IMG/VR virus record: IMGVR_UViG_3300020156_000025 | Coordinates: 25,985 to 89,984 of that record | DNA: 64,000 nucleotides | Reading direction: 5' to 3' (one strand) | Origin: a virus | Translations under genes and position numbers: made by a program | The notes under the pieces: model-generated | What the model was told of the DNA's origin: nothing | Database searches by the model: none | Seen by the model: the letters and a program-made list of their open reading frames with translations, nothing else | Shown here: piece by piece, positions 22,705 through 43,717 of the stretch | Layout: each line of letters begins with the position of its first letter | Position numbering within the stretch: the first letter of the stretch is position 1

Positions 22705-25596
22705 ATGAAAAGAAGAGCAAGCAAGCACATCAATAGCGTGGGTAATCTGGACGATCCGGACGTGGTGTTCGTGTGCGATTCGCCGTGGCAACAGGTGTGG
22801 GACGAAGGGGGGGTGATGACCGGACCGCAAATGGACATCGTGCGGGAGGCGTGCGCGGGGGCCGGGTTGAAGGGGAACCGCTGCGCGTTCATCACCTGTT
22901 CCCCGCCGATTCCGCCGGAGGCGGCGGCGACGGACGCGAGGACGAGGGATTTCCTCGCCTTGCACGCGGAGGAGTTCGCGGAGGAGTTGGGGCGCTTGCT
23001 GCCGACGGCGAAGCTGGTGGTGCCGTTCGGGAAAACCGCGCTGCGGATGGTGGCGGGGAAGTCGGTGGAGATTTCCAAGTGCCGGGGCACCGTGGGGAGG
23101 TTCGCGAACGCGGGGGAGGTGCCGGTGCTGCCGTTGTTCTCGCCCGCGCACGTGTTGCGCAAGCCCGAGGTGAGGGGGGTGTTCGAGTCGGACTTCGGGC
23201 AGATACGGGCGTTGCGGGAATCGGGCTGGGACGGGACGATCTTCGAGCGTTCGATCGCGGGGGCGCACTACGAGTGGGTGACGGACCTGTCGCCCTTGCT
23301 CGCGGAGAGGCCGAAGCGGCTGGCCTTGGACACCGAGACGCTGGGTTACGAGTGGCGGCACGGGAGGCGCATCCTGACGGTGCAATTGACGTGGAAGAAA
23401 GGGCACGCGTGGGTGGTGCCGTTGCAGCGGGGTTACTTCAACAATCCGGAGTTGCGGGGGGAATCGACCCGGCACCTGCCCTTGTTGTCGAAGGTGGACG
23501 TGCGGAGACTGGAAGGGCAGTTGCGGGAGCTGCTGGGGGACCCCCGGACCAAGGTGGTGGGGCACAACCTGAAATACGACCTCCACCACCTGCGCAACCA
23601 CGGGATCGAGGTGGCGAACTGGTATGCGGACACGATGCAGTTGGCGTTCCTCGCGGACGAGAACATGCTGTCGAAGTCGTTGGACGATTGCGCCCGGCGC
23701 TGGGTGCCGGAGCTGGGGGGGTATGCGGACGCGTTCAACACCGATCCGGTGCATCAAGGGAAGAGCAGGATGGATCTGGTGCCGCACGACAAGATGATCC
23801 GTTACGGGGGCGGGGACACGGATGCGTGCTTCCGCCTGTGCGAACGGTTGGTGGAGCTGGGGATGCAGGACGAGCGGCAATGGACCACGTTCCGGCGGGT
23901 TCAGATGCCGGGGTTGAGGACTTTTTTCGAGATGGAACGGAAGGGCATCCGGATCGACCGCGACGCGCTGCGCGAACTCGGGACGGTGCTGGCGAGGCAG
24001 GAGCAGGAGATGTATCAGTCGCTGATGCGGCAGGCCGCGGCCAAGGCTCCCGCCGTGCTGCGCAGGCACGAGGCGGCGGGGTTGTCGTTCACTCGGTCGG
24101 CGTTCACGGCGGACCTGTTGTTCTCGACCGACGGGTTCAAGTTGAAGCCGATCGTGTTCACGGACGGGACCAAGAACCTGCCGGACGAGGAGAAGATACC
24201 GAGCACGAGCACGAAAACGCACCTGCCCTTTTTCGACCATATCCCGTTCGTGGCGGAGTTGATCGAATACCAGCAGGTGCAGAAGATGCGCAGCACCTAC
24301 GTGGGATTGCCGGGAGGGGAGGAATCCGTGCTGCTCAAGCGGACGGCGAAAGGGAAGGTCAACGCGGCGGTGGTGCGGTTGTTCCGGGAGGCGGGAAGGG
24401 AGGATGAACTGCCCCCGGCCAAGACCGTGCCGGTGCGGTCGCGCAACCGGATGATGAAGATAGAGCCGGTGAAGGCGGAGGTGGTGGCCTCGGTGACATC
24501 GCCGAAGGGGGGGTTCCGGATCGACGTGGACACGGCGGGGGATTGCTGGAAGGTCGGGCAACGCGAACCGACCGGGTTCTGGCAGTATCTCGGGGAGGGT
24601 CTGGAGGGGGACATCATCCATCCTTCGTTCCGTCTGGACAATACGGTGACGGGCCGCTCGTCGTCGCAGAATCCGAACGCGCAGAATTTCCCGAAGCGGG
24701 GGAAGCTGGCGAAGGCATACCGGAAAATCTTCAAGCCCCGGCCCGGGTTCGTGTTCATCGAGTGCGACCTTTCGCAGGCTGAACTCCGGATCGCGGCGTG
24801 GATGGCGAACGATCCGGTGATGCTCCGCATTTACCGCGAGGGCGGGGACATCCATACGATGATCGCGGCCCGGTCGATGGGACTCACGGACGGGGCGTTC
24901 GCGGAACTTCCCGCGGAGGAACGCAAGGCGGCGCGGCAGAAGGCGAAGGCGGTGAACTTCGGGTTCCTCTACGGGATGTGGTGGAAGAAATTCAAGAATT
25001 ACGCCAAGACGCAATACGGGGTGTCGCTGACGGACCGGGAGTCGGAGAAGATGCGGGAAATGTTCTTCCGCACGTTCCCGGCGCTGGAGGGGTGGCACAC
25101 GGACATGAAGGCGTTCGTGAACCGGCACGGGTTCGTGCGTTCGTTGCACGGGGCGTTGCGGCGGTTGCCGGACATCAACTCCAACGACAAGGGGGTGCAG
25201 CAGGAGGCGGAGCGGCAGTCGGTGAACTCGCCCGTGCAACGCTTCGCGTCGGACGTGGGGATCATGGCGATGGCCAGGTTCGGGAGGGATTGCCCGTGGG
25301 ACGACATGTTCCCGGTGGCGTTCATCCATGACGCGCTCGTGGTGGAGGCGAGGGAGGAACGCGCGGAGGAGTGCGCGGCGGCAATGAAATATTGCATGGA
25401 GACGGTGCCGTTGGAGGCGTGGTTCGGAATCGTGCCGCCCTTGCCTATCGTGGCGGACGTGAGTATCGGAACCTCGCTGGGGGAGATGGAGGAGAGGCCG
25501 GACATCGTGGCCGCGATGCCCGCGTGGTTCCGTCCGGAACTCGACCTTGCGCCCCCGGCGGGGAGTGTTTTGCAAACCGTGCAAAATCGCGGGTGA
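22705..25596 (+). CDS. polA: Family A DNA polymerase with N-terminal UDG-like domain and 3'-5' exonuclease (SPO1-type architecture)
   Basis: Exo motifs LDTET, GHNLKYD, YGGGD; pol motifs TGRSSSQNPNAQNFP, DLSQAELR, KAVNFGFLYG, IHDAL. Confidence 0.93.
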   Translation: MKRRASKHINSVGNLDDPDVVFVCDSPWQQVWDEGGVMTGPQMDIVREACAGAGLKGNRCAFITCSPPIPPEAAATDARTRDFLALHAEEFAEELGRLLPTAKLVVPFGKTALRMVAGKSVEISKCRGTVGRFANAGEVPVLPLFSPAHVLRKPEVRGVFESDFGQIRALRESGWDGTIFERSIAGAHYEWVTDLSPLLAERPKRLALDTETLGYEWRHGRRILTVQLTWKKGHAWVVPLQRGYFNNPELRGESTRHLPLLSKVDVRRLEGQLRELLGDPRTKVVGHNLKYDLHHLRNHGIEVANWYADTMQLAFLADENMLSKSLDDCARRWVPELGGYADAFNTDPVHQGKSRMDLVPHDKMIRYGGGDTDACFRLCERLVELGMQDERQWTTFRRVQMPGLRTFFEMERKGIRIDRDALRELGTVLARQEQEMYQSLMRQAAAKAPAVLRRHEAAGLSFTRSAFTADLLFSTDGFKLKPIVFTDGTKNLPDEEKIPSTSTKTHLPFFDHIPFVAELIEYQQVQKMRSTYVGLPGGEESVLLKRTAKGKVNAAVVRLFREAGREDELPPAKTVPVRSRNRMMKIEPVKAEVVASVTSPKGGFRIDVDTAGDCWKVGQREPTGFWQYLGEGLEGDIIHPSFRLDNTVTGRSSSQNPNAQNFPKRGKLAKAYRKIFKPRPGFVFIECDLSQAELRIAAWMANDPVMLRIYREGGDIHTMIAARSMGLTDGAFAELPAEERKAARQKAKAVNFGFLYGMWWKKFKNYAKTQYGVSLTDRESEKMREMFFRTFPALEGWHTDMKAFVNRHGFVRSLHGALRRLPDINSNDKGVQQEAERQSVNSPVQRFASDVGIMAMARFGRDCPWDDMFPVAFIHDALVVEAREERAEECAAAMKYCMETVPLEAWFGIVPPLPIVADVSIGTSLGEMEERPDIVAAMPAWFRPELDLAPPAGSVLQTVQNRG

Positions 25597-25605
25597 CGCA
25601 AAATC

Positions 25606-25634
25606 TTGCTAAACGAAATCCGGTATGCTACGCT
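25606..25634 (+). promoter_or_regulatory. Sigma70-like phage promoter
   Basis: TTGCTA-AACGAAATCCGGTATGC(17)-TACGCT, with a TGCA box at 25569. Confidence 0.65.
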
Positions 25635-25669
25635 GCCCTCGTCCTTTGCAGGAAACCAAATAACCGATC

Positions 25670-26095
25670 ATGAGTGCTCAACCTGTCCGCAAACGCCGTG
25701 TCCAAGTCGAAGCTCCCGCCGTGCCGCAGGAAATCCGGGACAAGGCGGTGAAATTCTACACGGAAAACCTCGCCGCGAACGCCGCCCTTGCCTTGGCCGC
25801 GAAGAGTCGCAAGGAGCTGCTGGCCGCGATGAACGCCGCCGGGCTTTCGAGCGCGCAGATCGAGGGACTGGTGAACAACAAGCTCCAGACCCTCGACGTG
25901 ACGGTCGCCCCGTCCGTGCGTCAGGTCGTGTCGGTGCCGGTGCTGTCCAAATTGACCAGCGTGGACGTGCTGGTGGAGGTCTGTTCCGCGTCGCAGGAGT
26001 CGGTCCGGAACGCGCTGGGGGAGGCGGTGTTGCAACAATGCCTCGTCACCGTGGAGGGGGAGGTGAATGTCTCCGTGAAGGTGCCGAAGGCGTGA
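25670..26095 (+). CDS. Hypothetical protein (N-terminal PVRKRR)
   Basis: ORF after promoter. Confidence 0.65.
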   Translation: MSAQPVRKRRVQVEAPAVPQEIRDKAVKFYTENLAANAALALAAKSRKELLAAMNAAGLSSAQIEGLVNNKLQTLDVTVAPSVRQVVSVPVLSKLTSVDVLVEVCSASQESVRNALGEAVLQQCLVTVEGEVNVSVKVPKA

Positions 26096-26149
26096 GCCTT
26101 GCCTGTTCCGACGAAACATTGCACCCCTTCCGTAGCCATCTATCCGCCC

Positions 26150-26842
26150 ATGCCCGTGAAACCATCGACCAAACCCTCCCGTCCCGATCCCGTTGCATCG
26201 TTCGTGTCGGACGTGACCCGTCTGCTGCTGCCGGTGACCCCGGGGGAGGTGAGGGACCCGGCGCGGCTGGTCCGCTTCGTGCAGGACGTGATCGCGGACG
26301 CTCCCCTTGCCGGACATCACGACCACGGAACCGGGCACTGGCACTCGGTGCTGCGGAACGGGTGCAGGCTGTGCCCGGAGACGGGAGAAGGAGAGGGGAT
26401 GGACGGGGACCGTGCCAAAATCCGCGCTACGGTGGGGTTGTTCGCGCTGTTCCATGACTGCCGCCGCACGCACCCTTACGCCGATGTGTCGCACGGGGCC
26501 TTGGCGCAGGGCTACCTGCTGTCTCTCCGCAACGTGCTCCGTTCACTCGGGGTTCCGGACCGGGTGGTGCTCGCCGCGGGGTGGGCGTGCGCGTGGCATA
26601 CCGTGATCGACAAGCCGCGGGAGAGTGTGTTGTTCGGGGCCGTGGACCTGCGCATCGCGGGACGGAAGATGCTGCCGGGTTGGAAGCCGTGGTGGTTCGA
26701 TGCCATCGGAACCTGCCTCGACGCGGACCGGCTGGATTTGCCCCGGGTGGGGATCGCGCCGTCGCCGGAATACCTGTGGACGGACAGGGCGAAAGAAGAG
26801 GCAAGGAACAACACCGCCCTTCGCGGGGCGAAAGCGGAATGA
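26150..26842 (+). CDS. HD-domain phosphohydrolase
   Basis: HG.GHW..V, FALFHDCRR, HG, DADRLDL.RVG. Confidence 0.8.
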   Translation: MPVKPSTKPSRPDPVASFVSDVTRLLLPVTPGEVRDPARLVRFVQDVIADAPLAGHHDHGTGHWHSVLRNGCRLCPETGEGEGMDGDRAKIRATVGLFALFHDCRRTHPYADVSHGALAQGYLLSLRNVLRSLGVPDRVVLAAGWACAWHTVIDKPRESVLFGAVDLRIAGRKMLPGWKPWWFDAIGTCLDADRLDLPRVGIAPSPEYLWTDRAKEEARNNTALRGAKAE

Positions 26843-27177
26843 GCTTGCAGGTCTACATGGTCAGGCCGGTGATGGCGTTCCGCTCGGAATTTCCCGTTGT
26901 CGCGCACGTGCGGAGGTGGGTGGACCCGGGGGCCGCGCTGGCGTTCGAGGCGGAATCCTTGGAGGATGCGGAGCGGATCGCGTGGAACCGGTTGCGGGGA
27001 AAATTCATACCCAAGACCCCGGCGTTGCGGGTAGCGGGGCTGTGCGTGGTCGAAATGGAGGGGGAGGAAGCGGAGATCGCGCGCGCCGCCGTGCGCGGGG
27101 CTGCTCCGGCCCCGCCGGGGCCGGTGGAAGAGGGGAATTCAGGAACGGAGGAAACCGGAACCGGGGACGCGGAATGA
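26839..27177 (+). CDS. Hypothetical protein
   Basis: ATGA-coupled ORF. Confidence 0.55.
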   Translation: MSLQVYMVRPVMAFRSEFPVVAHVRRWVDPGAALAFEAESLEDAERIAWNRLRGKFIPKTPALRVAGLCVVEMEGEEAEIARAAVRGAAPAPPGPVEEGNSGTEETGTGDAE

Positions 27178-28237: not shown

Positions 28238-28621
28238 ATGTCCGACGAACACCCAACCGAAGCCGTCCGCGCCATGATCCGGGGCGTTTTCGGAAGCTGC
28301 GAAGACTTCGAAGACCGTCCTTGCGCGGTGGCGGTGGTGGAGTTGCCCGGGGGTGCGGTGATGGTGGCGATGGAGGACAACGGGTGCGTGGTGGTGCCCG
28401 ATTTGCGGGAGTTGTCGGTGCTGCGGCTGGTCGCGGCTGGATTCGACTACTTCACCGCGGAGAGACTTTCGGTGTGGCTGGCCGGGACAACTTTGCAAAC
28501 CGTGCAAAGCTCCGGACCGGAGACACCGTTGATGGAAAGCAGCGAGGCTGCATCGAACCGCCCCGGAGGGGCATTGAAAGAAGAAACAAACCAAACGACA
28601 CAGGACAATGGCCAAGAATAA
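28238..28621 (+). CDS. Hypothetical protein
   Basis: ORF after promoter. Confidence 0.5.
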   Translation: MSDEHPTEAVRAMIRGVFGSCEDFEDRPCAVAVVELPGGAVMVAMEDNGCVVVPDLRELSVLRLVAAGFDYFTAERLSVWLAGTTLQTVQSSGPETPLMESSEAASNRPGGALKEETNQTTQDNGQE

Positions 28622-29780
28622 CAGGGACGACGAAGAGTGGGGGCAGACCGGACAAGCCGCCCTTGAACGCATGAACCGTGCCGACGAGGAACATGCCAAG
28701 CGGAAGGCCCGCGGTTTCATGCCGCTGCGCTTCTGGTTGAGCAACACGCCGGAGGCGATCAAGAAGGGGGACAACGAGTGCGAGCTGGTGATCCTCGACG
28801 ATTGCGTGGTCTCGGACAAGCCGGGGAAGGGAGCCATCCTGATCCGGGAGCACAACCTGCAAGGGCCGGACGGGAAGTGGGGGAATCACGAATCGTGCGC
28901 CGCCGATTTCGACGATTGCCCGATTTGCGCCAAGACGGGCAAGGAGGGATATCACATCCTGTTCCTGACCGTGCTGGTGTTGAAGCCGTGGGAATCGAAG
29001 GACAAGAAGAGATCGTCGGAGTATTCCAAGATGCTGCTGCCGATTTTCCTCAGCCAACGGGACACGTTCCTCGACCTCCAGAAACATGCGCTCAAGAGCA
29101 GGGGCACGATGCGGGGCATGAAAATCCGCTTGCGCCGCGGGAAGGACTCCAAGCGGTCGATCGGGGAACCGGTGCTTATGGAGGACGGGAACATGTTCAA
29201 GGTCATGTCGGAGAAGTGGCTGGAGAAATGGTTCGGCCACGAGGCGGTGATTTCCCGCGACGGCAAGACCGTGCTCAAGGAGGCGAACGAGGACATCCAG
29301 CCGTTCGACTACAAGAAATTGTTCCCGAAGCCCGACGTGGAGGAGTTGCGCGAGCGATTCGGGGGCAAGACCCGGGCAGGCTCGAAGCGTGAGTTCGAGG
29401 AGGAGTTCCCGGACCAGCAGACGAACCGCGTGGGTGGTCGCCGCCGTTTCGACGATGACGACGATGACCCGGAGGACGACATTCCGGGGAACGCCGGGGC
29501 TGCGGCCAAGAAGCAGGGCGCGAAGGGGCGCTTTGCGGACGACGAGGACGAGCCCGAGGAAACGCCTGCCGCCGGGAGGGCCGGTAAGGCGGACGCGGAC
29601 GAGGGGGACGATGATCCGCCCGTGCGCTCGCGCCGCCCGTCAACGGCGAGGGAGGAAACCGGGGATGCGCCGGTCCGTTCCCGCCGGACGGGGGGCACAG
29701 CCGCTGCATCCGCTGCGAAAGAACCGATCGGGGACGATGATCCGGACGACCCGGACGCCGACGATGGCTGGAACGACTGA
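28608..29780 (+). CDS. Single-stranded DNA-binding protein (gp32-like, Zn site, acidic tail)
   Basis: RFWL...ILDD...EH...C.....CPIC core; long acidic disordered tail ending DDGWND. Confidence 0.7.
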   Translation: MAKNNRDDEEWGQTGQAALERMNRADEEHAKRKARGFMPLRFWLSNTPEAIKKGDNECELVILDDCVVSDKPGKGAILIREHNLQGPDGKWGNHESCAADFDDCPICAKTGKEGYHILFLTVLVLKPWESKDKKRSSEYSKMLLPIFLSQRDTFLDLQKHALKSRGTMRGMKIRLRRGKDSKRSIGEPVLMEDGNMFKVMSEKWLEKWFGHEAVISRDGKTVLKEANEDIQPFDYKKLFPKPDVEELRERFGGKTRAGSKREFEEEFPDQQTNRVGGRRRFDDDDDDPEDDIPGNAGAAAKKQGAKGRFADDEDEPEETPAAGRAGKADADEGDDDPPVRSRRPSTAREETGDAPVRSRRTGGTAAASAAKEPIGDDDPDDPDADDGWND

Positions 29781-31315: not shown

Positions 31316-31872
31316 GATCTAAACTGGAGCAAGCCGCGAGTCGGATCAAAACGGAACAAGCCAAGGTGCCGTATCATCTCGGTCCGGCGTATAAGTCGGC
31401 GCGCCGCGCGCGCTATCAGGAGGACGAGGAATATCGCCAGAGGTGCATCGAGACCGCGACGGAACACCGCCGGAAGGTGATGCGGGAGTCGCCGTCGGCG
31501 AGGGAATACCGCGATACCGTGACCGGGAACCTGTCCCGCATGGAAGACTTCGGGACGTGGCACGCGATCCGCGTTCAGGTGGGCCGGAAGCCGTCGCATA
31601 CCAGCGGGGTGACGTTCAGCACGAACCAGATCGCGCGCCTGATCGCAAGACGACCGGAGGCGGTGGCCGGGTGGCAGGACAGGGGGCTGTTCCCCGAGCC
31701 CAGGCACGCCGTGCTGGACGAGAACGGGAAGGAGACCGGGCGACGGGTCTATACCGCGGAGGAGGCAAGGAAACTCGCCCTTGCCGCCAAGAAGTGGTTC
31801 TACGGGAAGAGCACGCACCTTGCGTCGCAGGGGCCGAAGGCGGTGGCGGAATTCCACGCCGCTTGCTGCTGA
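31312..31872 (+). CDS. Putative HTH (MerR/Xis-like) DNA-binding protein
   Basis: FSTNQIARLIARRPEAVAGWQDRGLFPEP...RRVYT. Confidence 0.6.
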   Translation: MRSKLEQAASRIKTEQAKVPYHLGPAYKSARRARYQEDEEYRQRCIETATEHRRKVMRESPSAREYRDTVTGNLSRMEDFGTWHAIRVQVGRKPSHTSGVTFSTNQIARLIARRPEAVAGWQDRGLFPEPRHAVLDENGKETGRRVYTAEEARKLALAAKKWFYGKSTHLASQGPKAVAEFHAACC

Positions 31873-31930: not shown

Positions 31931-32302
31931 ATGAACGAGGATGAACCGAACCAAACCCCGGTGCGCTCGCGCCGTGCGCGTGCCGCGGGGGCAGTGAACC
32001 GGCACGAGGGTGCCGCGACCGTGGAGACGGAATTGAAAACCCCGGACGTGGAGCGCCCGTCCAAGACCCGCGCGCTCGCCCTTCCGGTCGAGGGTCTGCC
32101 GCCCGATCCGGCCTACGTGACGATAGGCGCGGGGTTCATGGAGAATCTCGGTAACTATGAATCGCTGCGGATTTATGCCTCCGTGACCTTGCCGTGCGAC
32201 AACACGCGGAGCGCCATCGTGAAGGCGAAGGACCGGGCACTCGCCTTGGTCGAGGAGTTCGTGGAAGACGAACGCCGCGCGATGCTCCAGACGAGGAGTT
32301 GA
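31931..32302 (+). CDS. Hypothetical phage protein (N-terminal PVRSRR)
   Basis: NLGNYESLRI motif seen in phage replication-region proteins. Confidence 0.65.
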   Translation: MNEDEPNQTPVRSRRARAAGAVNRHEGAATVETELKTPDVERPSKTRALALPVEGLPPDPAYVTIGAGFMENLGNYESLRIYASVTLPCDNTRSAIVKAKDRALALVEEFVEDERRAMLQTRS

Positions 32303-32377: not shown

Positions 32378-33673
32378 ATGCCTGCGAAGAAAGCCGCCAA
32401 GAAGACCGCGACGAAACAAGCCAAGGGGAACGACGCGCCCGTCCGTTCCCGCACCGGAGGGGGAGGGGAGCTAGCCCGACTGAGGACGGAGATCAATGCC
32501 AAGAAAGGACCGGACACGGTGATGACGGGGAACACCCTGCCGCCCGCGCGACATATCCCGACCGGATCGTTCCTGTTGGACCTTGCCACGATGGGGGGAA
32601 TTCCGGAGCGGCAGGCGACGATGCTTTATGGTTACGAATCGTCGGGGAAGACCGCGGTGCTGATGCGGAACATTGCCGAGTTCCAGCGAAAATATCCGAA
32701 GCAGGTCGCGGTGCTGATCGATGCGGAGCACATGTATGATCCGCTGTGGGCGGCGCAGTTGGGGGTGGACACGTCCCGATTGGAGGTAGCTAGGCCGGAG
32801 ACCGGGGAGGAGGCGGTGGACGTGTTCATCGCCATGATGGAGTGTCTGGAGGTGGGGTATATTGCGCTGGATTCCGTGCCTACGTGCGTGCCGCAGGTGG
32901 TGGTGGAGAGGTCGGCGGAAGACGACACGATGGCTTCCCTTGCCCGGTTGATGGGTAAGTTCTGCTCCAAGGTGTTGACGACGTGGGGTAAGGAGCGCAA
33001 GCGGGGGCACTATGTCACGGTGGCGTATATCAACCAGTTCCGGTCCAAGGTGGGGCTGGTGTTCGGGGACCCGCGAACGCTGCCCGGTGGCAGGCAGATC
33101 AATCACTTGCCGACGACCAAGATCGAACTCAAGGGGGACGAGGTGATGGGGGAGGACTCGGTGGGAAACAACGTCTCGCTCCACAACAAAATGACATTCA
33201 AGGTGACGAAGGCCAAGAACGGCTGTTCGATCCGCTCCGGGGAGGTGATGATGGTCATGTCGCCCGACAACGAGCACGGGATGCCGACGGGGGCTTACGA
33301 CGATTACAAGACCGTGTTGGTGTATGCGCAACGCTTCGGGCTGTTGACGGGGGCGGGGGCGAACTACCGGTTGGACCTGCTGGGATATGCCAAGATGAAG
33401 CTGGGGGACATCGAGCGCGCGCTGCGGCGCGACCAAGGGAAATTCGACCGGCTCAAGGCGTGCATGATCGTCATGCAACGCGTGTCCAAAAACCTGCCGC
33501 CCTTGCCGCCCGACAATTTTCTCGTGGGACCGGGAGTGACGGTGCCTGCCGAATTCATTGCCGTCGTGGTGAGGGACCACGAGCGTAAGAAAAACGCCGA
33601 ATCGCCTCCCGCGCCCGCGGTGGAGGAAGATGACGGCTTCGACGATAGCGACGAAGAGGACGAAGCGGCTTGA
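32378..33673 (+). CDS. recA: RecA/UvsX recombinase
   Basis: IPTGSFLLD, YGYESSGKT, IDAEH, LDSV, INQFR.K.G..FGDP...PGG. Confidence 0.92.
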   Translation: MPAKKAAKKTATKQAKGNDAPVRSRTGGGGELARLRTEINAKKGPDTVMTGNTLPPARHIPTGSFLLDLATMGGIPERQATMLYGYESSGKTAVLMRNIAEFQRKYPKQVAVLIDAEHMYDPLWAAQLGVDTSRLEVARPETGEEAVDVFIAMMECLEVGYIALDSVPTCVPQVVVERSAEDDTMASLARLMGKFCSKVLTTWGKERKRGHYVTVAYINQFRSKVGLVFGDPRTLPGGRQINHLPTTKIELKGDEVMGEDSVGNNVSLHNKMTFKVTKAKNGCSIRSGEVMMVMSPDNEHGMPTGAYDDYKTVLVYAQRFGLLTGAGANYRLDLLGYAKMKLGDIERALRRDQGKFDRLKACMIVMQRVSKNLPPLPPDNFLVGPGVTVPAEFIAVVVRDHERKKNAESPPAPAVEEDDGFDDSDEEDEAA

Positions 33674-33696
33674 ACCCCTGACGGGAGGATACTGCC

Positions 33697-34296
33697 GTGC
33701 CTGAGAGAGACATTCCCTTGTCGCAGCTATTCGAGCTGGTGGAGAAGCCCAAGAAGGGTATTTGCGTGGTCAAATACTGCCGGAAGAAGCGTGCGGTCAC
33801 GAGCACACTGTGCGCGATGCACAAGATGCATGCGTTCCGGATGCGCAACCCGTTGCTGGCGACCTACCTCCGGTTGCGGGACGGGGCCAAGCGCCGGGGG
33901 CTGGAGTTCGGATTGACGCGCGAACAGTTCCGCGAGCTGTGCGAGATCACCGGGTATCTGGAGGGGAAAGGAACGAGCCCGTTGTCCATGACGCTCGACC
34001 GGATCGATGCGCGGAGGGGATATGTGCCGGGAAACTTGCAGGTGATGACGTTGCGGGACAACGTGGCGAAGGGGAACCGGGAGAGGGAAATCACGTTCCG
34101 GGACGGGATACGGATTCCGTGGACGGAGATTTCGGTGCAGGCCGAACTGTTCAATGCCCGGGAAGTCGAACGGAGGAAAAGCTACGTGGTGTATTTCCGG
34201 GGGGAGGAGCGAACCGCCCCGCCCTTGCCTGACATGCAGGGGAGACATTGGCTGGACGATGATGCCGGTGATGATACAGGGAACGAACCGTTTTGA
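33697..34296 (+). CDS. HNH-like endonuclease
   Basis: AKRRGLEFGLT...TLDRIDARRGYVPGNLQ....DN. Confidence 0.7.
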   Translation: MPERDIPLSQLFELVEKPKKGICVVKYCRKKRAVTSTLCAMHKMHAFRMRNPLLATYLRLRDGAKRRGLEFGLTREQFRELCEITGYLEGKGTSPLSMTLDRIDARRGYVPGNLQVMTLRDNVAKGNREREITFRDGIRIPWTEISVQAELFNAREVERRKSYVVYFRGEERTAPPLPDMQGRHWLDDDAGDDTGNEPF

Positions 34297-34300
34297 AGCT

Positions 34301-34693
34301 ATGAACGAGGATTACCGATCGAGACGTGGACTGGCCGTGCCGAAAAGGGAGCGCGGGGTGAAAACGGTGTCGCATGTGCGGGCACCGAAGCAGGAGAGGG
34401 CAATGGCCGAGAGGCTGGGGGGCAGGTGCACGCCCGCCAGCGGATCGCGGGACGTGAAGGGGGACGTGAGGGTGGAGGGGGTGCTGCGTCTGGAATGCAA
34501 GAACACGACCAAGCAATCGTTCTCGGTGACGCGGGAGATGATCGAGAAGATCGAGCAAGCCGCGATCAACGCCGGGGAATTGCCCGCGGTGCAGATAGAC
34601 TTCATCGACGCGCGCGGAAACGTGGAGGCCAGTGTGGCGGTGGTGCCGTGCTGGGTGCTGGACTCGCTGGCACAGGGAAGGGGGGAGGGATGA
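34301..34693 (+). CDS. Hjc-like PD-(D/E)XK Holliday junction resolvase
   Basis: QERAMA..LGG..TPASGS...KGDV....LECKNT. Confidence 0.75.
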   Translation: MNEDYRSRRGLAVPKRERGVKTVSHVRAPKQERAMAERLGGRCTPASGSRDVKGDVRVEGVLRLECKNTTKQSFSVTREMIEKIEQAAINAGELPAVQIDFIDARGNVEASVAVVPCWVLDSLAQGRGEG

Positions 34694-35712
34694 GTCTTGC
34701 CCGCCGCGTGTTGCAGACGATGCGGGAACCCCGGAATCCCGGGCCGCAGAGCGTTCCGGTGCGCTCGCGCCGTCCTGTTTTGCAAACCGTGCAAACCGAG
34801 AGTCCCGCCGCCGGAACGGAAGAGGAGGAGGAGGACGAGCCGTGCGTGACGGCGGGATGGGACGTGGAGCAGGCGTTCGTGACCCGCGCCGCCCTTGTGA
34901 TGGACCGACAGGGGGAGGAGTCCCGGACGGGTAGCGAGCTAATCCACCTGTCTTCCATGCTGGCGAAAGACTGGTGCCCGAGGAGACACGTGTTGGCGGC
35001 GCGACACGGGGAACGCCAACTCAAGAGGGTGATGGCTCAGGACCGGATCGTGTGGGAGATGGGACGGGCGGCGGAAAGGCACCTGCGGAACCAGTTCATC
35101 GCGTCGCACGGGAGGACTCGGGTGGTGGGCAGATGGCAATGTGCGTGCGAGGCGCTCAAGGTGGACGGAAGGGGGCTGTCTGCCGCCGCCTTGCGTTCGG
35201 GCAGGCATCGCTGCGCACGTTGCAACGGGAACCCGATACACTACGGGGAGCTTCCGGTGACGGGGGACAACCTGACGGGTTCCCCGGACTTGCAATTCAT
35301 TGAGGGTGCCTCGGTGGGGCGGCACGTCACCGAGATCAAATCGATCAACAAGCGGGAATACGACCTGCTGACGGGTCCGCTGCCGGTGCACGTGCTCCAG
35401 TTGTCGGGCTATGTGCTGATGCTGCGGGCGGCGGGGGTGGTGGTCGATACAGCCCGGGTGGCGTATGTCTGCAAGGACTACGTGCCGCCGGGAACCAGTC
35501 CCTACAAGGAGTATGTGGTGATGCGACCGGGGCTGGAGTTGCCCGCCGCGCAACGGGCCGGGATCGGGCTGATCCAAGAGCAGGCGTCCGCGCTGGGAGC
35601 CACGCTCAGGAACTCGGGGCCTTTGCCGCCCCGGCTGACCAAGTGCACGGCTCCGACCGCGACGGCGGCGAAGGGGTGCAGCCAGTGCGCGCTGTGCTTT
35701 TCCTTGGACTGA
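34690..35712 (+). CDS. Cas4-like/RecB-family exonuclease
   Basis: WCPRR, GSPDL, EIKS, QLSGY, C-terminal Cys cluster; extra CAC...CARC insert. Confidence 0.75.
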   Translation: MSLARRVLQTMREPRNPGPQSVPVRSRRPVLQTVQTESPAAGTEEEEEDEPCVTAGWDVEQAFVTRAALVMDRQGEESRTGSELIHLSSMLAKDWCPRRHVLAARHGERQLKRVMAQDRIVWEMGRAAERHLRNQFIASHGRTRVVGRWQCACEALKVDGRGLSAAALRSGRHRCARCNGNPIHYGELPVTGDNLTGSPDLQFIEGASVGRHVTEIKSINKREYDLLTGPLPVHVLQLSGYVLMLRAAGVVVDTARVAYVCKDYVPPGTSPYKEYVVMRPGLELPAAQRAGIGLIQEQASALGATLRNSGPLPPRLTKCTAPTATAAKGCSQCALCFSLD

Positions 35713-35746
35713 GGCCGGGGACATGCTAGGGCTACCGGAGCAACCG

Positions 35747-36340
35747 ATGAACAGCCAACCAGTGAGGAGCAGGAGATCGCCGCGGGGGATAAAAACGATG
35801 GGCATAGACCCGTCCTTGAACGGCACCGCGGTGGTGGCGTGGCAGAAGGAGCTTGACCCGGAACTCTACGGACCCGCGGGGGCGGTGCTGGAGATGCATC
35901 TGACTCCCAAGCTCACGGGCATGGAGAGACTGGTGTGGCTGAGGGAGCAAATGCTCGCCATTATCGAGGGGGCGAGACCGGACGTGATCGTGCTTGAGGA
36001 CTATGCGCTGGGGATAAGGGGGAAGGGACTGATCGGGTCGCTGGAGTTCGGCGGGGTGCTCAGGTTGCTGTTGCACGAATGGTCCCGGATGAGGAACGTT
36101 CCGGTGTGGAAGATACCCCCGGCCAACCTTAAACAATTCACGACGGGGAAAGGGAATGCGGATAAGCCGCAGATGGTGATGGCGTGCTATAAGCGATGGA
36201 GCTACGATCCGTTGGGGTCGAGTCACGATTTGGCCGACGCCTATGCGCTGGCGCGGGTGGGACACGCGCTGGTCGATCCCTCCGTGAAAACAACACAGGT
36301 GGAACGCTCCGCGCTGTCAAAGGCGGTGCGTCTCGTGTAA
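35747..36340 (+). CDS. ruvC: RuvC-like Holliday junction resolvase
   Basis: GIDPSLNGTA, VLEDY, LKQFTTGKGNADK, DLADAYALA. Confidence 0.88.
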   Translation: MNSQPVRSRRSPRGIKTMGIDPSLNGTAVVAWQKELDPELYGPAGAVLEMHLTPKLTGMERLVWLREQMLAIIEGARPDVIVLEDYALGIRGKGLIGSLEFGGVLRLLLHEWSRMRNVPVWKIPPANLKQFTTGKGNADKPQMVMACYKRWSYDPLGSSHDLADAYALARVGHALVDPSVKTTQVERSALSKAVRLV

Positions 36341-38091: not shown

Positions 38092-38532
38092 ATGCCTGCC
38101 AAACGCATCGCCAAGAAAACCGCCGCACGGGAGGTCCAGCCCGATGCACCGACGGACGCTCCTTTGCAGGAGCGCAAGCTGGGGGACACCTACCGTCACG
38201 CGGGGTATACCTACCACAAGATGGACCGGGAGGGGGACGTTGCAATGTATGCCGCTGTCCGCCCCGGGGAATCCGCCCCGTTCGCATATGAGGTGTTCAT
38301 CGTCCAGCACAACCCCGGGGGCTCTATTGCACGGAAAAACCCCAAGCCCGACGAGTCTCCGTATTCCGTGATCGCTCCCGGGGAGAATCCACCCGCCGGG
38401 TCGAAATGGGGAATCCTAGGGTGGACGTTCATGGCGTGCGAACTCGATCGTGCCCGGGCACGCTATCAGGCCCTGCTGATCGAAAAGGGCGTGCGCAAAT
38501 CGGTCCCCGTGCGCTCGCGCCGTCCGGCGTGA
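38092..38532 (+). CDS. Hypothetical protein (C-terminal PVRSRR)
   Basis: YEVF...P..SKWG..GWT phage-type motif. Confidence 0.65.
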   Translation: MPAKRIAKKTAAREVQPDAPTDAPLQERKLGDTYRHAGYTYHKMDREGDVAMYAAVRPGESAPFAYEVFIVQHNPGGSIARKNPKPDESPYSVIAPGENPPAGSKWGILGWTFMACELDRARARYQALLIEKGVRKSVPVRSRRPA

Positions 38533-39066: not shown

Positions 39067-39095
39067 TTGCATAACGAAACCCGATGCTCTAACCT
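39067..39095 (+). promoter_or_regulatory. Sigma70-like phage promoter
   Basis: TTGCAT-AACGAAACCCGATGCTC(17)-TAACCT. Confidence 0.6.
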
Positions 39096-39119
39096 GTCAC
39101 GCACATCACCTGAACCGAT

Positions 39120-39323: not shown

Positions 39324-39330
39324 CACTCCG

Positions 39331-40128
39331 ATGCTATTGGAAAAGGGAAAGACGGAACTTGCTTCCGACGGATCGCTGATCGCGAGTGAGGAGGACCGGG
39401 ACGAATTGATGAGGCTGGCCGACAGGCTGAAACAGATGCTGGATACCTCGAACAGCACGCCCCTTGCCGCGGAACTGGCCTCGACGTTGACACAGGGGCC
39501 GGTGGGAACGTGGGTCCGGCATCCGCTGTGCGTGACGCTCTACATTCCCGGGATGGAACCGATGCTGAACGCCCGGCTTGAGAACGTGCGGGAACTGGTG
39601 GACGGTTATTGGGCGAAGGGCAGATGGTCCAATTACGTGTATGCCCATGAACGTCCGTTCCGATTGACCGCCCTGTTGCGGGTGATCCATGACGGATCGC
39701 CGAAGGACAGGGAATTGTGGGAGCTGCTGTCGTGGACGTGGAGGGATTCGGAGCATCCGTGGGTCAACCGCCGGATGTGGGAAACGCTTTGGACGATGGA
39801 TCGTCCGGGAATCCAGTTCGCGACCGCTTACCGTGACCGCAAGGAACTGGCCCGTTTGCACGCTTTGCAAAAGGTGACGGTTTACCGGGGAACCCCGGGG
39901 TCGAAGGGCCGGAAGGGGATTTCATGGACGCTGGACAAGGAGCGCGCGAGGTGGTTTTCCCTGCGCTTCGCCACGGCCAAGGAACGTCCGAGGGTGTGGA
40001 CTCTGGAGGTGCCCGGGGAGATGATCCTTGCCTATCTGACCGACCGGAACGAGGACGAGGTGGTGATCGATCCCCGGTATCTGAACGGGATTCATTCCCG
40101 GAAATTCAAGGAGGCGGGAGATGAATAG
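39331..40128 (+). CDS. Putative ADP-ribosyltransferase-fold protein (R-S-E type)
   Basis: VTVYRG, GISWTLD...ARWF, NEDEVVI. Confidence 0.55.
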   Translation: MLLEKGKTELASDGSLIASEEDRDELMRLADRLKQMLDTSNSTPLAAELASTLTQGPVGTWVRHPLCVTLYIPGMEPMLNARLENVRELVDGYWAKGRWSNYVYAHERPFRLTALLRVIHDGSPKDRELWELLSWTWRDSEHPWVNRRMWETLWTMDRPGIQFATAYRDRKELARLHALQKVTVYRGTPGSKGRKGISWTLDKERARWFSLRFATAKERPRVWTLEVPGEMILAYLTDRNEDEVVIDPRYLNGIHSRKFKEAGDE

Positions 40129-40834
40129 CAACGTGTATATCGATACCCGCTATGCGGTCCGCAGGGGGGCATGGTGGATGCTGGTAAGGGTGCGCGGAAC
40201 CTGCGTGCTTCGCGCGATACACCGCACGGAGGCCGACGCATGGGAGGTGTGGGACTTGGAGATTCCGCTGAATGATAGAGACCGGGAATATTCGAGCGCA
40301 CGCCTGTCCGTGCTGGACGACGTGCATGCGGGGGATGTCACGGTGGCATTCGAGGCAACCCTTTCGTGCCGGTTTGAAATCATAACGGGGGTCAACTTGC
40401 GGATGCGCCTGACCCCCCGTGAAACGATACGGGTGCACGTGCTTATGCCTGTGATCGAGACTGTCCGGCAGGAGGGTAGGAGAAAGGAATTTGCTAAGGC
40501 AATGCTCTCGCCCCGGGAATCTCCGCGCGCGCTCGTGGAGGAGCATTGGACGGTCAAGCTGAACTTTCTGGCGTCTTACCCCCACGAACGCAGGCTTTCG
40601 ACTCATGACAGCGGGGTTGCGAGGGAGACACTCGGAGAGCTGACGGAAGCCGATGCCCGGTTGAGCTGGGTGTGCCATGCGCTGCCCAGCATTGATCCGG
40701 ACAAGCTGCTCGTGGATCTGGACGGGAGCGCGGAGAGGGAACGACTCAGGGTTCAGGCCGAACATGATCGTCAGGTCGAGGAGGCGTTCCGGGCCTCCCT
40801 GTCCGAATCCCGCCGGAGGGAAATCCGTCTCTGA
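40121..40834 (+). CDS. Hypothetical protein with C-terminal RRREIRL tag
   Basis: Coupled ORF. Confidence 0.6.
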   Translation: MNSNVYIDTRYAVRRGAWWMLVRVRGTCVLRAIHRTEADAWEVWDLEIPLNDRDREYSSARLSVLDDVHAGDVTVAFEATLSCRFEIITGVNLRMRLTPRETIRVHVLMPVIETVRQEGRRKEFAKAMLSPRESPRALVEEHWTVKLNFLASYPHERRLSTHDSGVARETLGELTEADARLSWVCHALPSIDPDKLLVDLDGSAERERLRVQAEHDRQVEEAFRASLSESRRREIRL

Positions 40835-40837
40835 CTC

Positions 40838-40995
40838 GTGTAACCGCCGCTAGGGGAGAATTCTGGGTAATCCCCGGAATTTTTTGTTTTTGCGTATCAA
40901 CGAGTTACGACGGAAATCCGGTAAATTCGTGCAAACTTTGCAAAATCGACTTGCTAAACAATACCCGGTGCCGCATGCTGTCCCCCGTCAACCGA
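40838..40995 (+). promoter_or_regulatory. Composite early-promoter module, copy 3
   Basis: Same CGTGTAAC / TCAACGAGTTAC / TGCA box / TTGCTA-N17-CATGCT arrangement. Confidence 0.75.
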
Positions 40996-41005
40996 CAACG
41001 CCACA

Positions 41006-41437
41006 ATGACCGTCGCCCTTTCCACTGCCGATATGATCGACGCGCTGATTGCCGCCGCCCGTGATCGCGTCGCCGCCGCCCCGGAACACTTCACTGCTCA
41101 CTACGTGGAGAATTACACCGCCGTGCTCCGCCAGAGGACGGAGCGGGAGGTGCAGGGCGAATACGCATGGGTGTTTTGCGCCAGCTACGATGCCCCGGCT
41201 AGAATCCGTTTCGCGGTGTCGGGGGAGCACACGTTCGGTTACGTGCTTCCGCACCAGCCCGATACGCTGCATATTCTCGCATCCAAGCCGCAGAAGGGTG
41301 CGACGTTCGGACCGTTTGACGGGAGCTGTCCGCTAGGGGACTCCCGCCATGCCACGCTCGCCGACTTCGAGGACTATCGCGTGGTGTCCACCGGTTACGC
41401 GGCTGATTCTGCCCGCTACGAGTTTCCGACCGCCTGA
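41006..41437 (+). CDS. Hypothetical early protein
   Basis: ORF after promoter module. Confidence 0.6.
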   Translation: MTVALSTADMIDALIAAARDRVAAAPEHFTAHYVENYTAVLRQRTEREVQGEYAWVFCASYDAPARIRFAVSGEHTFGYVLPHQPDTLHILASKPQKGATFGPFDGSCPLGDSRHATLADFEDYRVVSTGYAADSARYEFPTA

Positions 41438-41470
41438 TTTTTGCACACTGTTCAAAACCGCCAAACCGCC

Positions 41471-42163
41471 ATGACCGCCAACGTCGAAACCTACACTATC
41501 CGCAACCCGAAAAACGGGGAATCCATCGAGTCCGCGTTCCAGACCGATCCGCAGGCCGCTCGTGCGCTGATCGCCCGTCTCGACCGTCTGAATCCCCGCA
41601 ACCGCGCTTTCGCGGAGGACCTGATCCGTGCGGAGGAACGCTCCACGGGATCGCGCCCGCTGTCCCCGTCGCAATCGTTCTGGTTGCACAAGCTCGCGAT
41701 GCCGGAGGCTGCCCGCCCCGCGCCGGAGCCTGCGGCGATCATCCCGCTCGCCCCGCTGAACGCGCTGTTTTCCCGCGTGGGGCAGAAGCTCAAGCGTCCC
41801 GCCGTCGTGCTCGCCCTTCCATCCGGGGGAGAGATGAAGGTGTCGCTCGCGGGCAGCAGCTCCCGCTACCCGGGCCAGCTCATGGTGGCATCGCCCGAAT
41901 TCGGGGGTGCCTACTACGGCAGGGTGGACGGGGAAGGCAGATTCTTCCCGGGGCGCTCCGCCGATGCGGAATCGCTCGGGCTGTTGGAACGCTTCGCTGC
42001 TGATCCGCTCAAGGTGGCCGCGGAGCACGGGCACCTGACGGGCCGCTGCTGTTTTTGCAACCGTGCCTTGTCCGATGACAAATCGACCGCCCTTGGCTAC
42101 GGGCCGGTGTGCGCGAAAAAATGGAACCTCGAACACTCCGCCGCTGCCGCTCGCCGCGCCTGA
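41471..42163 (+). CDS. DUF6011-like Zn-finger protein
   Basis: GRCCFCNRALSD..S...GYGPVCAKKW. Confidence 0.7.
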   Translation: MTANVETYTIRNPKNGESIESAFQTDPQAARALIARLDRLNPRNRAFAEDLIRAEERSTGSRPLSPSQSFWLHKLAMPEAARPAPEPAAIIPLAPLNALFSRVGQKLKRPAVVLALPSGGEMKVSLAGSSSRYPGQLMVASPEFGGAYYGRVDGEGRFFPGRSADAESLGLLERFAADPLKVAAEHGHLTGRCCFCNRALSDDKSTALGYGPVCAKKWNLEHSAAAARRA

Positions 42164-42184
42164 TCTTCCAGCCCCTCTGAAACC

Positions 42185-42601
42185 ATGAGCTATCTGCAAA
42201 CCATTCTGGACCTGATCCGTTCGGGTGCCGTTGACGAATTTCTGGACCTGATCGGAAGGGACGTGCTGGACCGGAAGAAATACACCGCGCGCCAACGCAC
42301 CTTGCCTCAGACGCTGGAGGAATTCCCTGTGGGGTGCACCGTCCGGTTCAAGCCCTCGGTCCGTCCGCGCTACCTTGCCGGGCATACGGCTACGGTGACG
42401 GGTCACGATGGTGCCCGCAAGGTCCGCCTTGCCCCGATCGCAATGGGTCGGTTCGAGGGAAGGGGGGAGGTGCGTTGTCCGGTGAACCTGATCGAACGGC
42501 TGACACCGCTTGAGCCCGCGCCGCAACCGCAGGCGCAGAACGCCCCGGTCCGCTCGCGCAAACCCGCCCCGGGCGCACGGAGGAAAATCCGTCTCGACTG
42601 A
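42185..42601 (+). CDS. Hypothetical SH3-like protein carrying both PVRSRK and C-terminal RRKIRLD
   Basis: FPVGCTVRF...ATVTG..KVRL beta-barrel pattern. Confidence 0.65.
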   Translation: MSYLQTILDLIRSGAVDEFLDLIGRDVLDRKKYTARQRTLPQTLEEFPVGCTVRFKPSVRPRYLAGHTATVTGHDGARKVRLAPIAMGRFEGRGEVRCPVNLIERLTPLEPAPQPQAQNAPVRSRKPAPGARRKIRLD

Positions 42602-42685
42602 TTCCCGCCATGCCCGCCCTTCTAGCCACCGCCGTGTCGTGCGGTTACACCCTGACGTTGATCGCCCTTTTCTGGAACTGACGCC

Positions 42686-42883
42686 ATGCATTACCGCCCC
42701 ACTCAACTAGACCTTGCGGAATCCGGACGACGCCGCGCCGCGCGTGCTGCACATGCGCTCGCGTTCATGATCGATTCACCGCAACGTCCGACACGTGCCG
42801 AACTCGCCCGCCTGCGGGAGAAACGCCCCGCCGTGTGGAATCGCTTCCCTGAATCCCGCTGCATTGACGCGGAAGGAGACTAA
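42686..42883 (+). CDS. Hypothetical protein
   Basis: Short ORF in gene run. Confidence 0.4.
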   Translation: MHYRPTQLDLAESGRRRAARAAHALAFMIDSPQRPTRAELARLREKRPAVWNRFPESRCIDAEGD

Positions 42884-42890
42884 ACCAATC

Positions 42891-43121
42891 ATGAATATCG
42901 AGATCATAGACCATGCCAGCCTCGCCATCATTGCCACGGTAACAGGATACGACCGTCCGTGTGCGGGGGAGCGAATCATCCTGCACCGTGACGCGCCGCA
43001 AGAGGGGCAGCTAACCTGCGAACAGTTTCGCGTGGTCGAGGTGCGACACCGCTACCGGGACCTGTCTTTGAGCAACTTCCCGGTGGAGGTGGTGGTGGAA
43101 CCCATCCAACCCGAACAGTAA
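42891..43121 (+). CDS. Hypothetical protein
   Basis: Short ORF with A/C-rich leader. Confidence 0.5.
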   Translation: MNIEIIDHASLAIIATVTGYDRPCAGERIILHRDAPQEGQLTCEQFRVVEVRHRYRDLSLSNFPVEVVVEPIQPEQ

Positions 43122-43228
43122 CCTTTACCCCCGGACAACAGGGTCCCCGCCTGCCGCGCCATCCCCCCGGAGCGCGATGCCGGGCGGGGACTTGCATTTT
43201 TCAGGCCCTGCTCCAATTTCATACCGCT

Positions 43229-43717
43229 ATGAACAATCAGCCAGTTAGAAGCCGCCGCCGTCCCGCGGAACACCCTCCGGAAACGCACCAGACCGGGCCT
43301 GTGCGCTCGCGTCGCGCGACTGCCGTTGCCACATCCCCGCCGATTCCCGATCCGCCGGAGCGGCTCGTGGAGGCTCCCGTGCGCTCCCGCCGATCGCCCT
43401 TGCCCGACGATGATCGTTGTTTGGGCACGGGGAGACATTCCTACGCCGCCGAGAATATGGAAACGGGGGTGATGGTCATGTCCTATGTCGATTCCACCCG
43501 CGCGGATTACACGCTGGGGGATTTGCGGCGCGAGCGTTCGGCGAGGGGTTGCAGGATCAGGACGGTCGCCACCTATTCGTTTGCCGGGGACGGGAAGCGG
43601 ACGCTGTGGCACGACATCAAACCGGAGGATTCGGTCAAATGGCAGGAGCACCTGACTTGGTGCCTGAGCCGTTTTCCGTCGCCGCCGCAGACTTCGGAAC
43701 GCTCAAAACTTGCGTAA
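43229..43717 (+). CDS. Hypothetical protein with three PVRSRR repeats
   Basis: Pro-rich disordered N-terminus with 3 motif copies. Confidence 0.65.
   Translation: MNNQPVRSRRRPAEHPPETHQTGPVRSRRATAVATSPPIPDPPERLVEAPVRSRRSPLPDDDRCLGTGRHSYAAENMETGVMVMSYVDSTRADYTLGDLRRERSARGCRIRTVATYSFAGDGKRTLWHDIKPEDSVKWQEHLTWCLSRFPSPPQTSERSKLA

Follow-up and report, generated by a model that had tools for sequence, protein, structure and literature searches.

A short arginine-rich peptide recurs on DNA-handling proteins of an uncultured soil phage and may act as a docking tag

Introduction

Replication hubs share docking peptides, among them the acidic C-terminal tip of bacterial single-stranded DNA-binding protein (SSB) and the clamp-binding motifs carried by partners of the beta-clamp, of PCNA and of T4 gp45. 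Here we examine a peptide that may serve in a comparable way, P-V-R-S-R-R, which recurs on otherwise unrelated proteins encoded by an uncultured soil phage. The phage is represented by a single contig of 89,984 bp and 62.9% GC (IMG/VR record IMGVR_UViG_3300020156_000025); its final 64 kb, positions 25,985 to 89,984 of the record, is the stretch of 64,000 nucleotides in which the peptide was noticed by a first-pass annotation made from the letters alone, and is referred to as the window.

Among precedents with experimental support, the LAST motif of T4 gp32 comes closest to a short basic peptide that sits at the end of an SSB and docks on an SSB core. This motif, KRKST at the gp32 N-terminus, binds to the adjacent gp32 core on single-stranded DNA (ssDNA) near residues 228-253 and is essential for cooperativity, through an interaction that is not simply electrostatic (PMC12893549). 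Arginine-rich motifs of two other systems also deserve comparison: the R-motifs of nucleolar proteins that nucleophosmin reads, defined as RXnR with n of 2 or less, which had to be multivalent for phase separation (PMC4786410), and the VBM and VIM of p97 cofactors, linear motifs that are read by the p97 N domain (PMC5389986). A literature search returned no description of PVRSRR itself nor, as judged on titles and the opening lines of abstracts, of any phage arginine-rich recruitment motif.

Materials and Methods

Positions are given in window numbering unless called genome positions. Genes were called as the longest open reading frame (ORF) and passed through a GC3 filter, yielding 101 proteins and 26,162 amino acids (aa); nearly all genes lie on the + strand. 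N-termini are overlong in several calls (PolA, the Cas4-like protein, the ORF at 31781), which adds noise to the shuffle counts of arginine clusters. Chance occurrence was assessed from the composition expectation and from 300 within-protein shuffles. Pfam was run on 50 window proteins, many of which matched nothing.

The first 10 bases of the contig are identical to its last 10. A soil metagenome, the one DNA run found to contain the entire stretch, is its probable source. The encoded proteins include, besides those discussed below, a superfamily-2 helicase, an RNase H and a weak primase match, and this gene content (terminase-like protein, ATPase, PolA, RecA, RuvC, helicase, exonuclease, RNase H) identifies the genome as that of a tailed phage. 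Its closest cultured relatives, as judged from RecA, the ATPase and the SSB, are Aeromonas phage HJ05, Rhizobium phages RHph_I4 and L338C, Rhodobacter phage RcTiptonus and the Pseudomonas SM1/PaMx31 group. An IMG/VR search with RecA as a single protein found no relative, and an alignment query was used instead.

Results

Excess of the tag over chance

The first-pass annotation had counted 13 tag sites in 10 ORFs, and a six-frame scan of the window recovered every one of them, all on the + strand: PVRSR at 24430, 29619, 29670, 31958, 32438, 34756, 35759, 38506, 42545, 43241, 43298 and 43376, and PVRKR at 25682. A small-terminase-like protein encoded upstream of the window (genome positions 6960-7640; phrog_4044) provides a 14th site, a PVRSRR at residue 47 that comes after an acidic N-terminal tail. 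In total the coding frames of the genome hold 13 PVRSR and one PVRKR, distributed over 11 proteins. The other five frames of the whole genome offer PVRSR only twice, both times on the minus strand, leaving 14 of the 16 six-frame occurrences in the coding frame.

We considered whether GC-driven Arg and Pro frequencies could produce such numbers. The results give this no support: the 13 PVRSR copies, in 10 proteins, compare with 0.038 expected from composition and with a mean of 0.023 in the shuffled proteomes, none of which held more than one copy, and no 5-mer of any kind exceeded five copies in any shuffle. In the non-structural arm, looser clusters of the form [PTV]RxR[RK] total 18, spread over 13 proteins, where shuffling gives 3.4 +/- 1.7; the remaining 39 proteins have one, where shuffling gives 1.4. 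The copies are also uniform. Five residues, Val and Ser included, are identical in 13 of the 14 tags, and R-S-R-R is present in 10; nine of the 11 tagged proteins carry a single tag. The tag is real, occurs far above chance, is conserved and is, to our knowledge, undescribed.

Some familiar arginine motifs were set aside as explanations. In a Tat signal peptide, an N-terminal RR motif precedes a hydrophobic stretch. None of the 14 tags leads into such a stretch, six of them are internal or C-terminal, and this reading was dropped. The core of an AT-hook is R-G-R-P, and the absence of Gly between the arginines of any tag disposed of that reading as well. A dibasic-protease site was dropped on sequence grounds.

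Tagged proteins and the position of the tag

The tagged proteins are otherwise unrelated to one another, and those of known function mostly handle DNA. The gene labels first given to them mostly hold, RecA and PolA by Pfam, RuvC and the Cas4-like protein by PHROG, and the SSB by its gp32-like fold, Pfam having found no match for it. All features that follow are on the + strand. The claim that the tags occupy disordered termini or loops stands for the SSB, RecA, PolA and the proteins of genes 25670 and 31931, and for the other tags is a judgement from position or sequence only.

In PolA (22741-25596, start approximate; DNA_pol_A PF00476, 7.3e-61; DNA_pol_A_exo1, a 3'-5' exonuclease domain, 1e-12; a weak N-terminal UDG match at 4.9e-4, under the cut-off), the tag PVRSRN (24430-24447) lies in an insertion loop of about 100 aa between two conserved blocks, MRSTYVG and PTGFWQY, an insertion that HJ05 PolA lacks. 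The 141-aa protein encoded just after PolA (25670-26095) has PVRKRR (25682-25699) as its residues 5-10, and its Atlas structure matches start at residue 13 or later, past the tag. The SSB (28608-29780) combines a folded core, residues 38-265 or so, with a tail predicted to be disordered, residues 270-390, bearing PVRSRR twice, at residues 338 (29619-29636) and 355 (29670-29687). An AlphaFold2 model of this protein, built on a 22-sequence alignment, gave pLDDT values of 83-96 for residues 41-250 and of 40-50 for residues 270-390. PVRSRR (31958-31975) is found again near the N-terminus of a 123-aa protein encoded before RecA (31931-32302), ahead of the Atlas structure matches, which begin at residue 23-25. 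The RecA-like recombinase itself (32378-33673; PF00154, 7.7e-42, residues 38-293) carries PVRSRT (32438-32455) at residue 21, in an N-terminal tail ahead of the conserved core.

Two nuclease genes follow. PVRSRR (34756-34773) lies in an N-terminal extension of a Cas4-like exonuclease of the PD-(D/E)XK type (about 34687-35712), preceding the part that matches phrog_2506 (1.1e-24, residues 74-339; phrog_1706 matches at 3e-6). In RuvC (35747-36340; phrog_159, 5.7e-32, with a Pfam RuvC score under the cut-off) it forms residues 5-10 (35759-35776) if translation starts at 35747. The public gene call (P0001, 180 aa) starts at Met18 and so omits the 17 tagged N-terminal residues; since GGAG lies 6 nt upstream of the ATG at 35747, and chance is very unlikely to place PVRSRR in frame immediately ahead of a gene start, we take the long form to be real. 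The ten RuvC homologues matched, apart from the phage's own product, are at most 41% identical, and none of the seven sequences read has an N-terminal extension, which makes them uninformative on the tag.

Small proteins carry the remaining copies. A 146-aa protein assigned to no Pfam or PHROG family (38092-38532) has PVRSRR (38506-38523) two residues from its C-terminus; a 138-aa protein (42185-42601) has PVRSRK (42545-42562) in its C-terminal tail, followed by a terminal RRKIRLD; and a 162-aa protein (43229-43717) has three PVRSRR tags, starting at 43241, 43298 and 43376, within its first 55 residues (43241-43393). A looser tag, VRRRR (15278-15292), is present in the C-terminal tail of a tandem-AAA ATPase (13658-15307). 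RecA and the 146-aa protein both begin MPAK[KR]xAKKTA, a Lys-rich stretch ahead of the Arg tag; an MPAKK start is also seen in many RecA homologues.

Conservation among relatives

Relatives whose genomes range from 41 to 63% GC keep an Arg-rich tag in the same places of their orthologues while the flanks diverge. Absence from orthologues was among the refuting outcomes named in the first-pass annotation, and the tag withstands this check. RecA homologues on metagenomic phage contigs, at 45-57% identity, have diverged N-tails that hold PVRKR, PVRRR, PARRR, PARKR or PTRKR, the consensus over 25 N-tails being PxRxR, and one homologue (P0027) has PVRRRR at its C-terminus instead. Among 79 RecA homologues with a readable N-tail, an Arg cluster is present in the N-tail of 33, in the last 22 residues of 7, and in either tail of 39. 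An Arg tag occupies the same column of the PolA loop in five of six aligned relatives, the exception being the loopless HJ05 protein, and the tags of these relatives precede a hydrophobic-hydrophobic-[DE]-[FL] sequence. In the SSB family, the C-tail contains one Arg cluster or more in 21 of 22 members and ends in an acidic tip with an aromatic residue in 18 of 22; an N-terminal tag is found in the SSBs of HJ05, L003, L004, L006/L007, P0123 and P0124. The protein encoded after PolA starts with an Arg tag in HJ05, SM1 and the IMG/VR relatives L002, L004 and L007, as does the protein encoded before RecA in HJ05, L003, L004, L006/L007 and SM1. One complete relative of 77.5 kb, G003, uses an RTRR form in six proteins, among them the ATPase and the SSB, each tagged in its tail, and PolA, tagged in its loop.

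At the proteome level, Arg clusters exceed shuffled counts in HJ05 (21 vs 9.9 +/- 3.0) and SM1 (28 vs 17.3 +/- 3.7), and show no excess in Stenotrophomonas phage DLP_5 (2 vs 2.3) or Mycobacterium phage Dylan (11 vs 10.1), neither of which has an Arg-tagged SSB tail. Enrichment in some relatives and its absence in DLP_5 and Dylan, together with the variety of forms, indicate that the tag is a trait of part of the lineage, with a form of its own in each phage. The residue at the Ser position is R, K, T, Q or P in relatives (PVRRR, PARKR, PTRTR, VRQRR), so that phosphorylation of this Ser, one of the functions initially suggested, is disfavoured as a conserved role. Five annotated proteins of DLP_5 (L012; 12064, 15404, 16949, 19747 and 20118) start with MGV, as MGVK, MGVS or MGVF, which is probably ribosome-binding sequence read as coding through mis-set starts.

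Peptide or DNA repeat

The first-pass annotation held that the conserved unit is the peptide, not a DNA repeat. This view is upheld: the DNA flanks are unrelated at all 14 sites, a single reading frame and a single strand are used throughout, and two tags are written in different codons, CCA GTG AGG AGC AGG AGA in RuvC and CCA GTT AGA AGC CGC CGC at the first tag of the 43229 protein. From these observations we conclude that the peptide is the selected unit, and a DNA repeat that merely happens to be read as peptide was rejected on the same grounds; an excess of one 12-mer remains.

The supporting statement that the codons differ strongly proved only partly right. It holds for two tags, which use AGG, AGA and AGC, and fails for others: five of the 13 PVRSR tags contain the exact 12-mer GTGCGCTCGCGC, where codon usage in 14 confident genes predicts 0.30 (Poisson P about 2e-5), and CGC is used at 21 of the 27 first-two-Arg codons of the tags, against 26% in the same genes. 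GTGCGCTCGCGC has no minus-strand copy. One possibility for the codon excess is short-patch copying between sites which, if it took place, would explain some of the tag's uniformity in this phage.

A second peptide, LQTVQ, seen in six ORFs, was considered as another tag and rejected: it is a by-product of a DNA box, TTTTGCAAACCGTGCAAAA, and appears in overlong ORFs and at the PolA C-terminus. This is the consensus of 34 TGCA-N5-TGCA boxes on the + strand of the genome, many of them directly ahead of gene starts (in the window, for example, at 1366, 6839, 11861, 25568, 34778, 51805 and 59718), and it looks like a phage promoter or operator.

A gp32-like SSB

The fold of the tagged SSB is predicted from its model to be gp32-like. 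VIA-align comparison gave Z scores of 8.6 with RB69 gp32 (2a1k), 8.2 with T4 gp32 (1gpc), 7.9 with 8gme and 7.4, over about 175 aligned residues at an rmsd of 4.5-4.6 and 14% identity, the next fold scoring 5.1. H82, C97, C104 and C107 are invariant in 22 sequences, a His-Cys3 set that presumably corresponds to the gp32 zinc site. A Foldseek search of the PDB with the model returned nothing at E <=0.001, gp32 being its top match at E = 0.012, and the SSB alignment, run as a profile against PDB sequences, picked up only a chance match and not gp32; the link accordingly rests on the VIA-align scores and the zinc ligands.

Acidic C-terminal tips are present on two other proteins of the phage, ...DDTGNEPF on an endonuclease VII/HNH-like protein (33697-34296; phrog_3322, 1.5e-18) and ...DDDGYNPF on the product of 49554-50702. 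We take these to resemble the tip of bacterial SSB, and their owners may mimic SSB tails to engage SSB-binding proteins.

Discussion

A proposed docking tag read by the SSB

The reading that we favour, tentatively and short of thinking it probable, is that P-V-R-S-R-R is this phage's form of a lineage-wide docking tag whose partner is most likely its own gp32-like SSB. The general motif would be roughly [P/T/V]-x-R-x-R-R, borne on flexible tails and loops of DNA-handling proteins in a lineage of tailed phages of roughly 70-110 kb. Acting as a peptide, it would most likely attach its bearers to a single shared partner and so bring polymerase, recombinase, nucleases, terminase and several small accessory proteins together at sites of phage DNA processing. 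The SSB, itself tagged twice in its tail here and N-terminally in several relatives, would be that partner, and its clients would use the same peptide to settle on SSB-coated ssDNA. That the motif binds a partner, and which one, we infer by analogy; the SSB is favoured as reader because LAST provides the nearest experimental precedent. In favour of this reading are the excess of the motif, its peptide nature, its conservation at orthologous places and clients that mostly handle DNA, together with the gp32 fold and His-Cys3 set of the SSB, the N-terminal SSB tags of relatives, and DLP_5 and Dylan, which lack both the enrichment and a tagged SSB tail.

The likeness to LAST lies in a short basic peptide with Ser or Thr on the flexible end of an SSB of gp32 fold. 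LAST is composed as (Lys/Arg)3(Ser/Thr)2; in V-R-S-R-R there are three basic residues with a single Ser, and the G003 form is R-T-R-R. The differences are that the phage tag is also on about ten other proteins, that it is Arg-based and proline-framed, and that it belongs to an SSB without detected sequence similarity to gp32; moreover LAST occupies residues 3-7, whereas the SSB tags are at 338 and 355 of 390. With the docking peptides of replication hubs the tag shares its presence, as one short peptide, on the flexible ends of unrelated DNA enzymes, with drifting flanks and a position that can move between N- and C-terminus; it differs in being basic, where those are acidic or hydrophobic. 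No clamp gene was recognised among the proteins scanned with Pfam and PHROG.

Several observations weigh against docking on the SSB. The similarity of the SSB to gp32 is structural only (Z 8.6, 14% identity), and its tag is in the C-tail here, unlike the N-terminal LAST of T4 gp32. An Arg cluster in one or other tail is limited to about half of the RecA homologues, 39 of 79. A terminase small subunit and an AAA ATPase are not obvious SSB clients. The genes for SSB, RecA, PolA and the AAA protein travel together, the last being present in five of five relatives searched, so co-occurrence cannot single out the SSB as reader. Finally, the excess of GTGCGCTCGCGC suggests that part of the uniformity of the tag comes from copying at the DNA level, which weakens the argument that uniformity needs a stereospecific reader.

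Alternative explanations

The alternative that survives best, doubtful as we consider it, needs no protein reader: the proline-framed Arg cluster would itself bind DNA, by the backbone or the minor groove, as a tether or sled, in the manner of histone SPKK-type units, and so raise the local concentration of each enzyme on DNA. Every client of known function acts on DNA, the tag varies loosely across relatives, RecA and the 38092 protein add their Lys-rich starts to it, and both HJ05 SSB tails carry a net basic charge, contain much Pro, Ala and Arg and have no acidic blocks; the codon evidence for DNA-level copying, moreover, removes the need for a specific reader to keep the tag uniform. Generic DNA binding does not, however, require the identity of 13 of the 14 tags over five residues that include Val and Ser. 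A peptide of three arginines is by itself a weak DNA binder, and DLP_5, which has the same enzymes, does without the tag.

Another idea, which we regard as unlikely, is partitioning into a condensate: tags would be drawn by charge to acidic tracts in the tails of the SSB, of RecA and of the terminase, as nucleolar R-motifs are to those of nucleophosmin, and a membrane-less replication factory would result. The tag fits the RXnR definition (PMC4786410) and lies in disordered regions, and the candidate hub, the SSB, has acidic tracts and basic motifs of its own: the SSB tail alternates six acidic tracts with three Arg clusters, acidic tracts are present in 18 of the 22 family members, RecA has an acidic C-terminal tail and the terminase-like protein an acidic N-terminal one. 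E. coli SSB is reported to phase-separate (10.1101/797431). The SSB tail of HJ05, however, is tagged and has no acidic tracts, so the pairing of tag with acidic tract is not general and the model lost weight. The tag is also far more uniform (P-V-R-S-R) than R-motifs; binding driven by charge would not keep Pro, Val and Ser, and most clients have a single tag, where phase separation with nucleophosmin needed multivalent motifs.

Slightly less likely still, the tag could be an adaptor or degron signal read by the Cdc48-like tandem-AAA ATPase of the phage, which would remodel or remove the tagged proteins; basic C-terminal tags read by ClpX offer a parallel. A model of the ATPase (pLDDT 92.9, with the C-tail below 50) has two AAA-type domains, an alpha/beta AAA-like domain running from residue 1, and Foldseek matched it to the D1-D2 tandem of p97, Cdc48, Drg1 and NVL over about 540 columns (E 4e-20, TM 0.6). 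The likeness to the p97 system is that Arg-rich linear motifs are found on unrelated proteins and that the phage encodes an ATPase of that family; none of the 14 tags fits the VBM or VIM consensus, EhRRRRLxhh or Rx2h3AAx2Rh (PMC5389986). The model, moreover, lacks a Cdc48-type N domain, the part that reads VBM and VIM, and the analogy lost weight accordingly. The gene is present not only in all five relatives searched but also in HJ05 and SM1; its presence throughout those five means that co-occurrence neither supports nor opposes a role as reader, and Dylan has the ATPase (27% identity) without tag enrichment. The ATPase is itself tagged: an Arg cluster is present in the last 32 aa of 62 of 120 full-length homologues, one of which ends in EDEPVRSRRRLG. 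This makes it look like a client, and we rate it as a client rather than a reader. Two genes downstream of it comes a weak DUF1257 match (16159-16650; 2.3e-4, under the cut-off), a gene order that is the same in HJ05; the papers retrieved on DUF1257, as judged on titles and the beginnings of abstracts, describe no phage modules.

We give little credence to the tag as a site that is modified (by ADP-ribosylation of Arg, or by phosphorylation of Arg or Ser) or cut by a dibasic protease, or as a ligand of a conserved host protein. The tags are exposed, and R-S-R-R, as found in 10 of the 14, fits an R-x-[KR]-R pattern. Replacement of the Ser in relatives speaks against this, as does the lack of an evident purpose in cutting the tails of RecA, RuvC and SSB; no kinase, ADP-ribosyltransferase or protease family was found among the 50 Pfam-scanned window proteins, many of which had no match at all. 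A host reader conserved across relatives of 41-63% GC would not explain tag forms that are specific to each phage. That the tag has no function, being a by-product of a GC-rich composition (63% GC, with Arg at 8-9% of residues) or of a DNA repeat translated in a single frame, is scarcely credible in spite of the 12-mer shared by five of 13 tags, given shuffles that never exceed one copy, the single frame, unrelated flanks and two tags in entirely different codons, and relatives at 41-58% GC that keep Arg tags in the same places.

A wider scheme and neighbouring features

Docking on the SSB can be extended to a scheme that we consider rather improbable as a whole: a private address-label system, in which a phage-tuned tag is read by the gp32-like SSB, possibly together with the tandem-AAA ATPase, and would build a self-organising, membrane-less DNA factory that concentrates phage enzymes of replication, recombination and packaging while excluding enzymes from the host or from co-infecting phages. 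A C-terminal [RK]-x-[IVL]-R-L-D would supply the second half of a bipartite signal.

Such an ending, [RK]-x-[IVL]-R-L-(D)-stop, recurs at the C-termini encoded by 15360-16112, 40121-40834, 42185-42601, 46054-46671, 6941-7945 and 35747-36340; the codons ATC CGT CTC are common to three copies. In ATPase homologues elsewhere the last residues are ...SLDG, and in that of Dylan they are KVRVLDL. The Arg tag and this ending may be halves of one signal.

Elsewhere in the window, an 858-aa protein with a QueC-like domain (60795-63371; PF06508, 4.4e-13) and a 2OG-Fe(II) oxygenase (58346-59098; PF13532, 3.3e-15) hint at a 7-deazaguanine-type DNA modification or at base repair. Parts of 33152-36290 also have matches at >=99% among short contigs of two soil RNA-Seq libraries produced in other studies, covering 10 and 5 of 30 bins; these matches carry no inference on transcription, starts or strand.

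Significance

The tag most resembles a known kind of element, the shared docking peptide on flexible ends of replisome proteins, and it is by such peptides, the SSB tip and clamp-binding motifs among them, that cells and T4-like phages assemble their replisomes. What is new is this particular peptide, its spread over the DNA toolkit and its phage-specific forms: a basic peptide marks nearly the whole DNA-handling equipment of a widespread and little-studied group, which includes phages from soil and water and phages of Pseudomonas, Aeromonas, Rhizobium and Rhodobacter. The cultured relatives SM1 and HJ05 carry their own versions of the tag, so the question is directly testable at the bench. 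A reader, if found, would show how replication, recombination and packaging are spatially organised in these phages, would give a role to several conserved tagged proteins of unknown function, and would provide a compact, transferable tag with which cargo could be sent to phage DNA factories.

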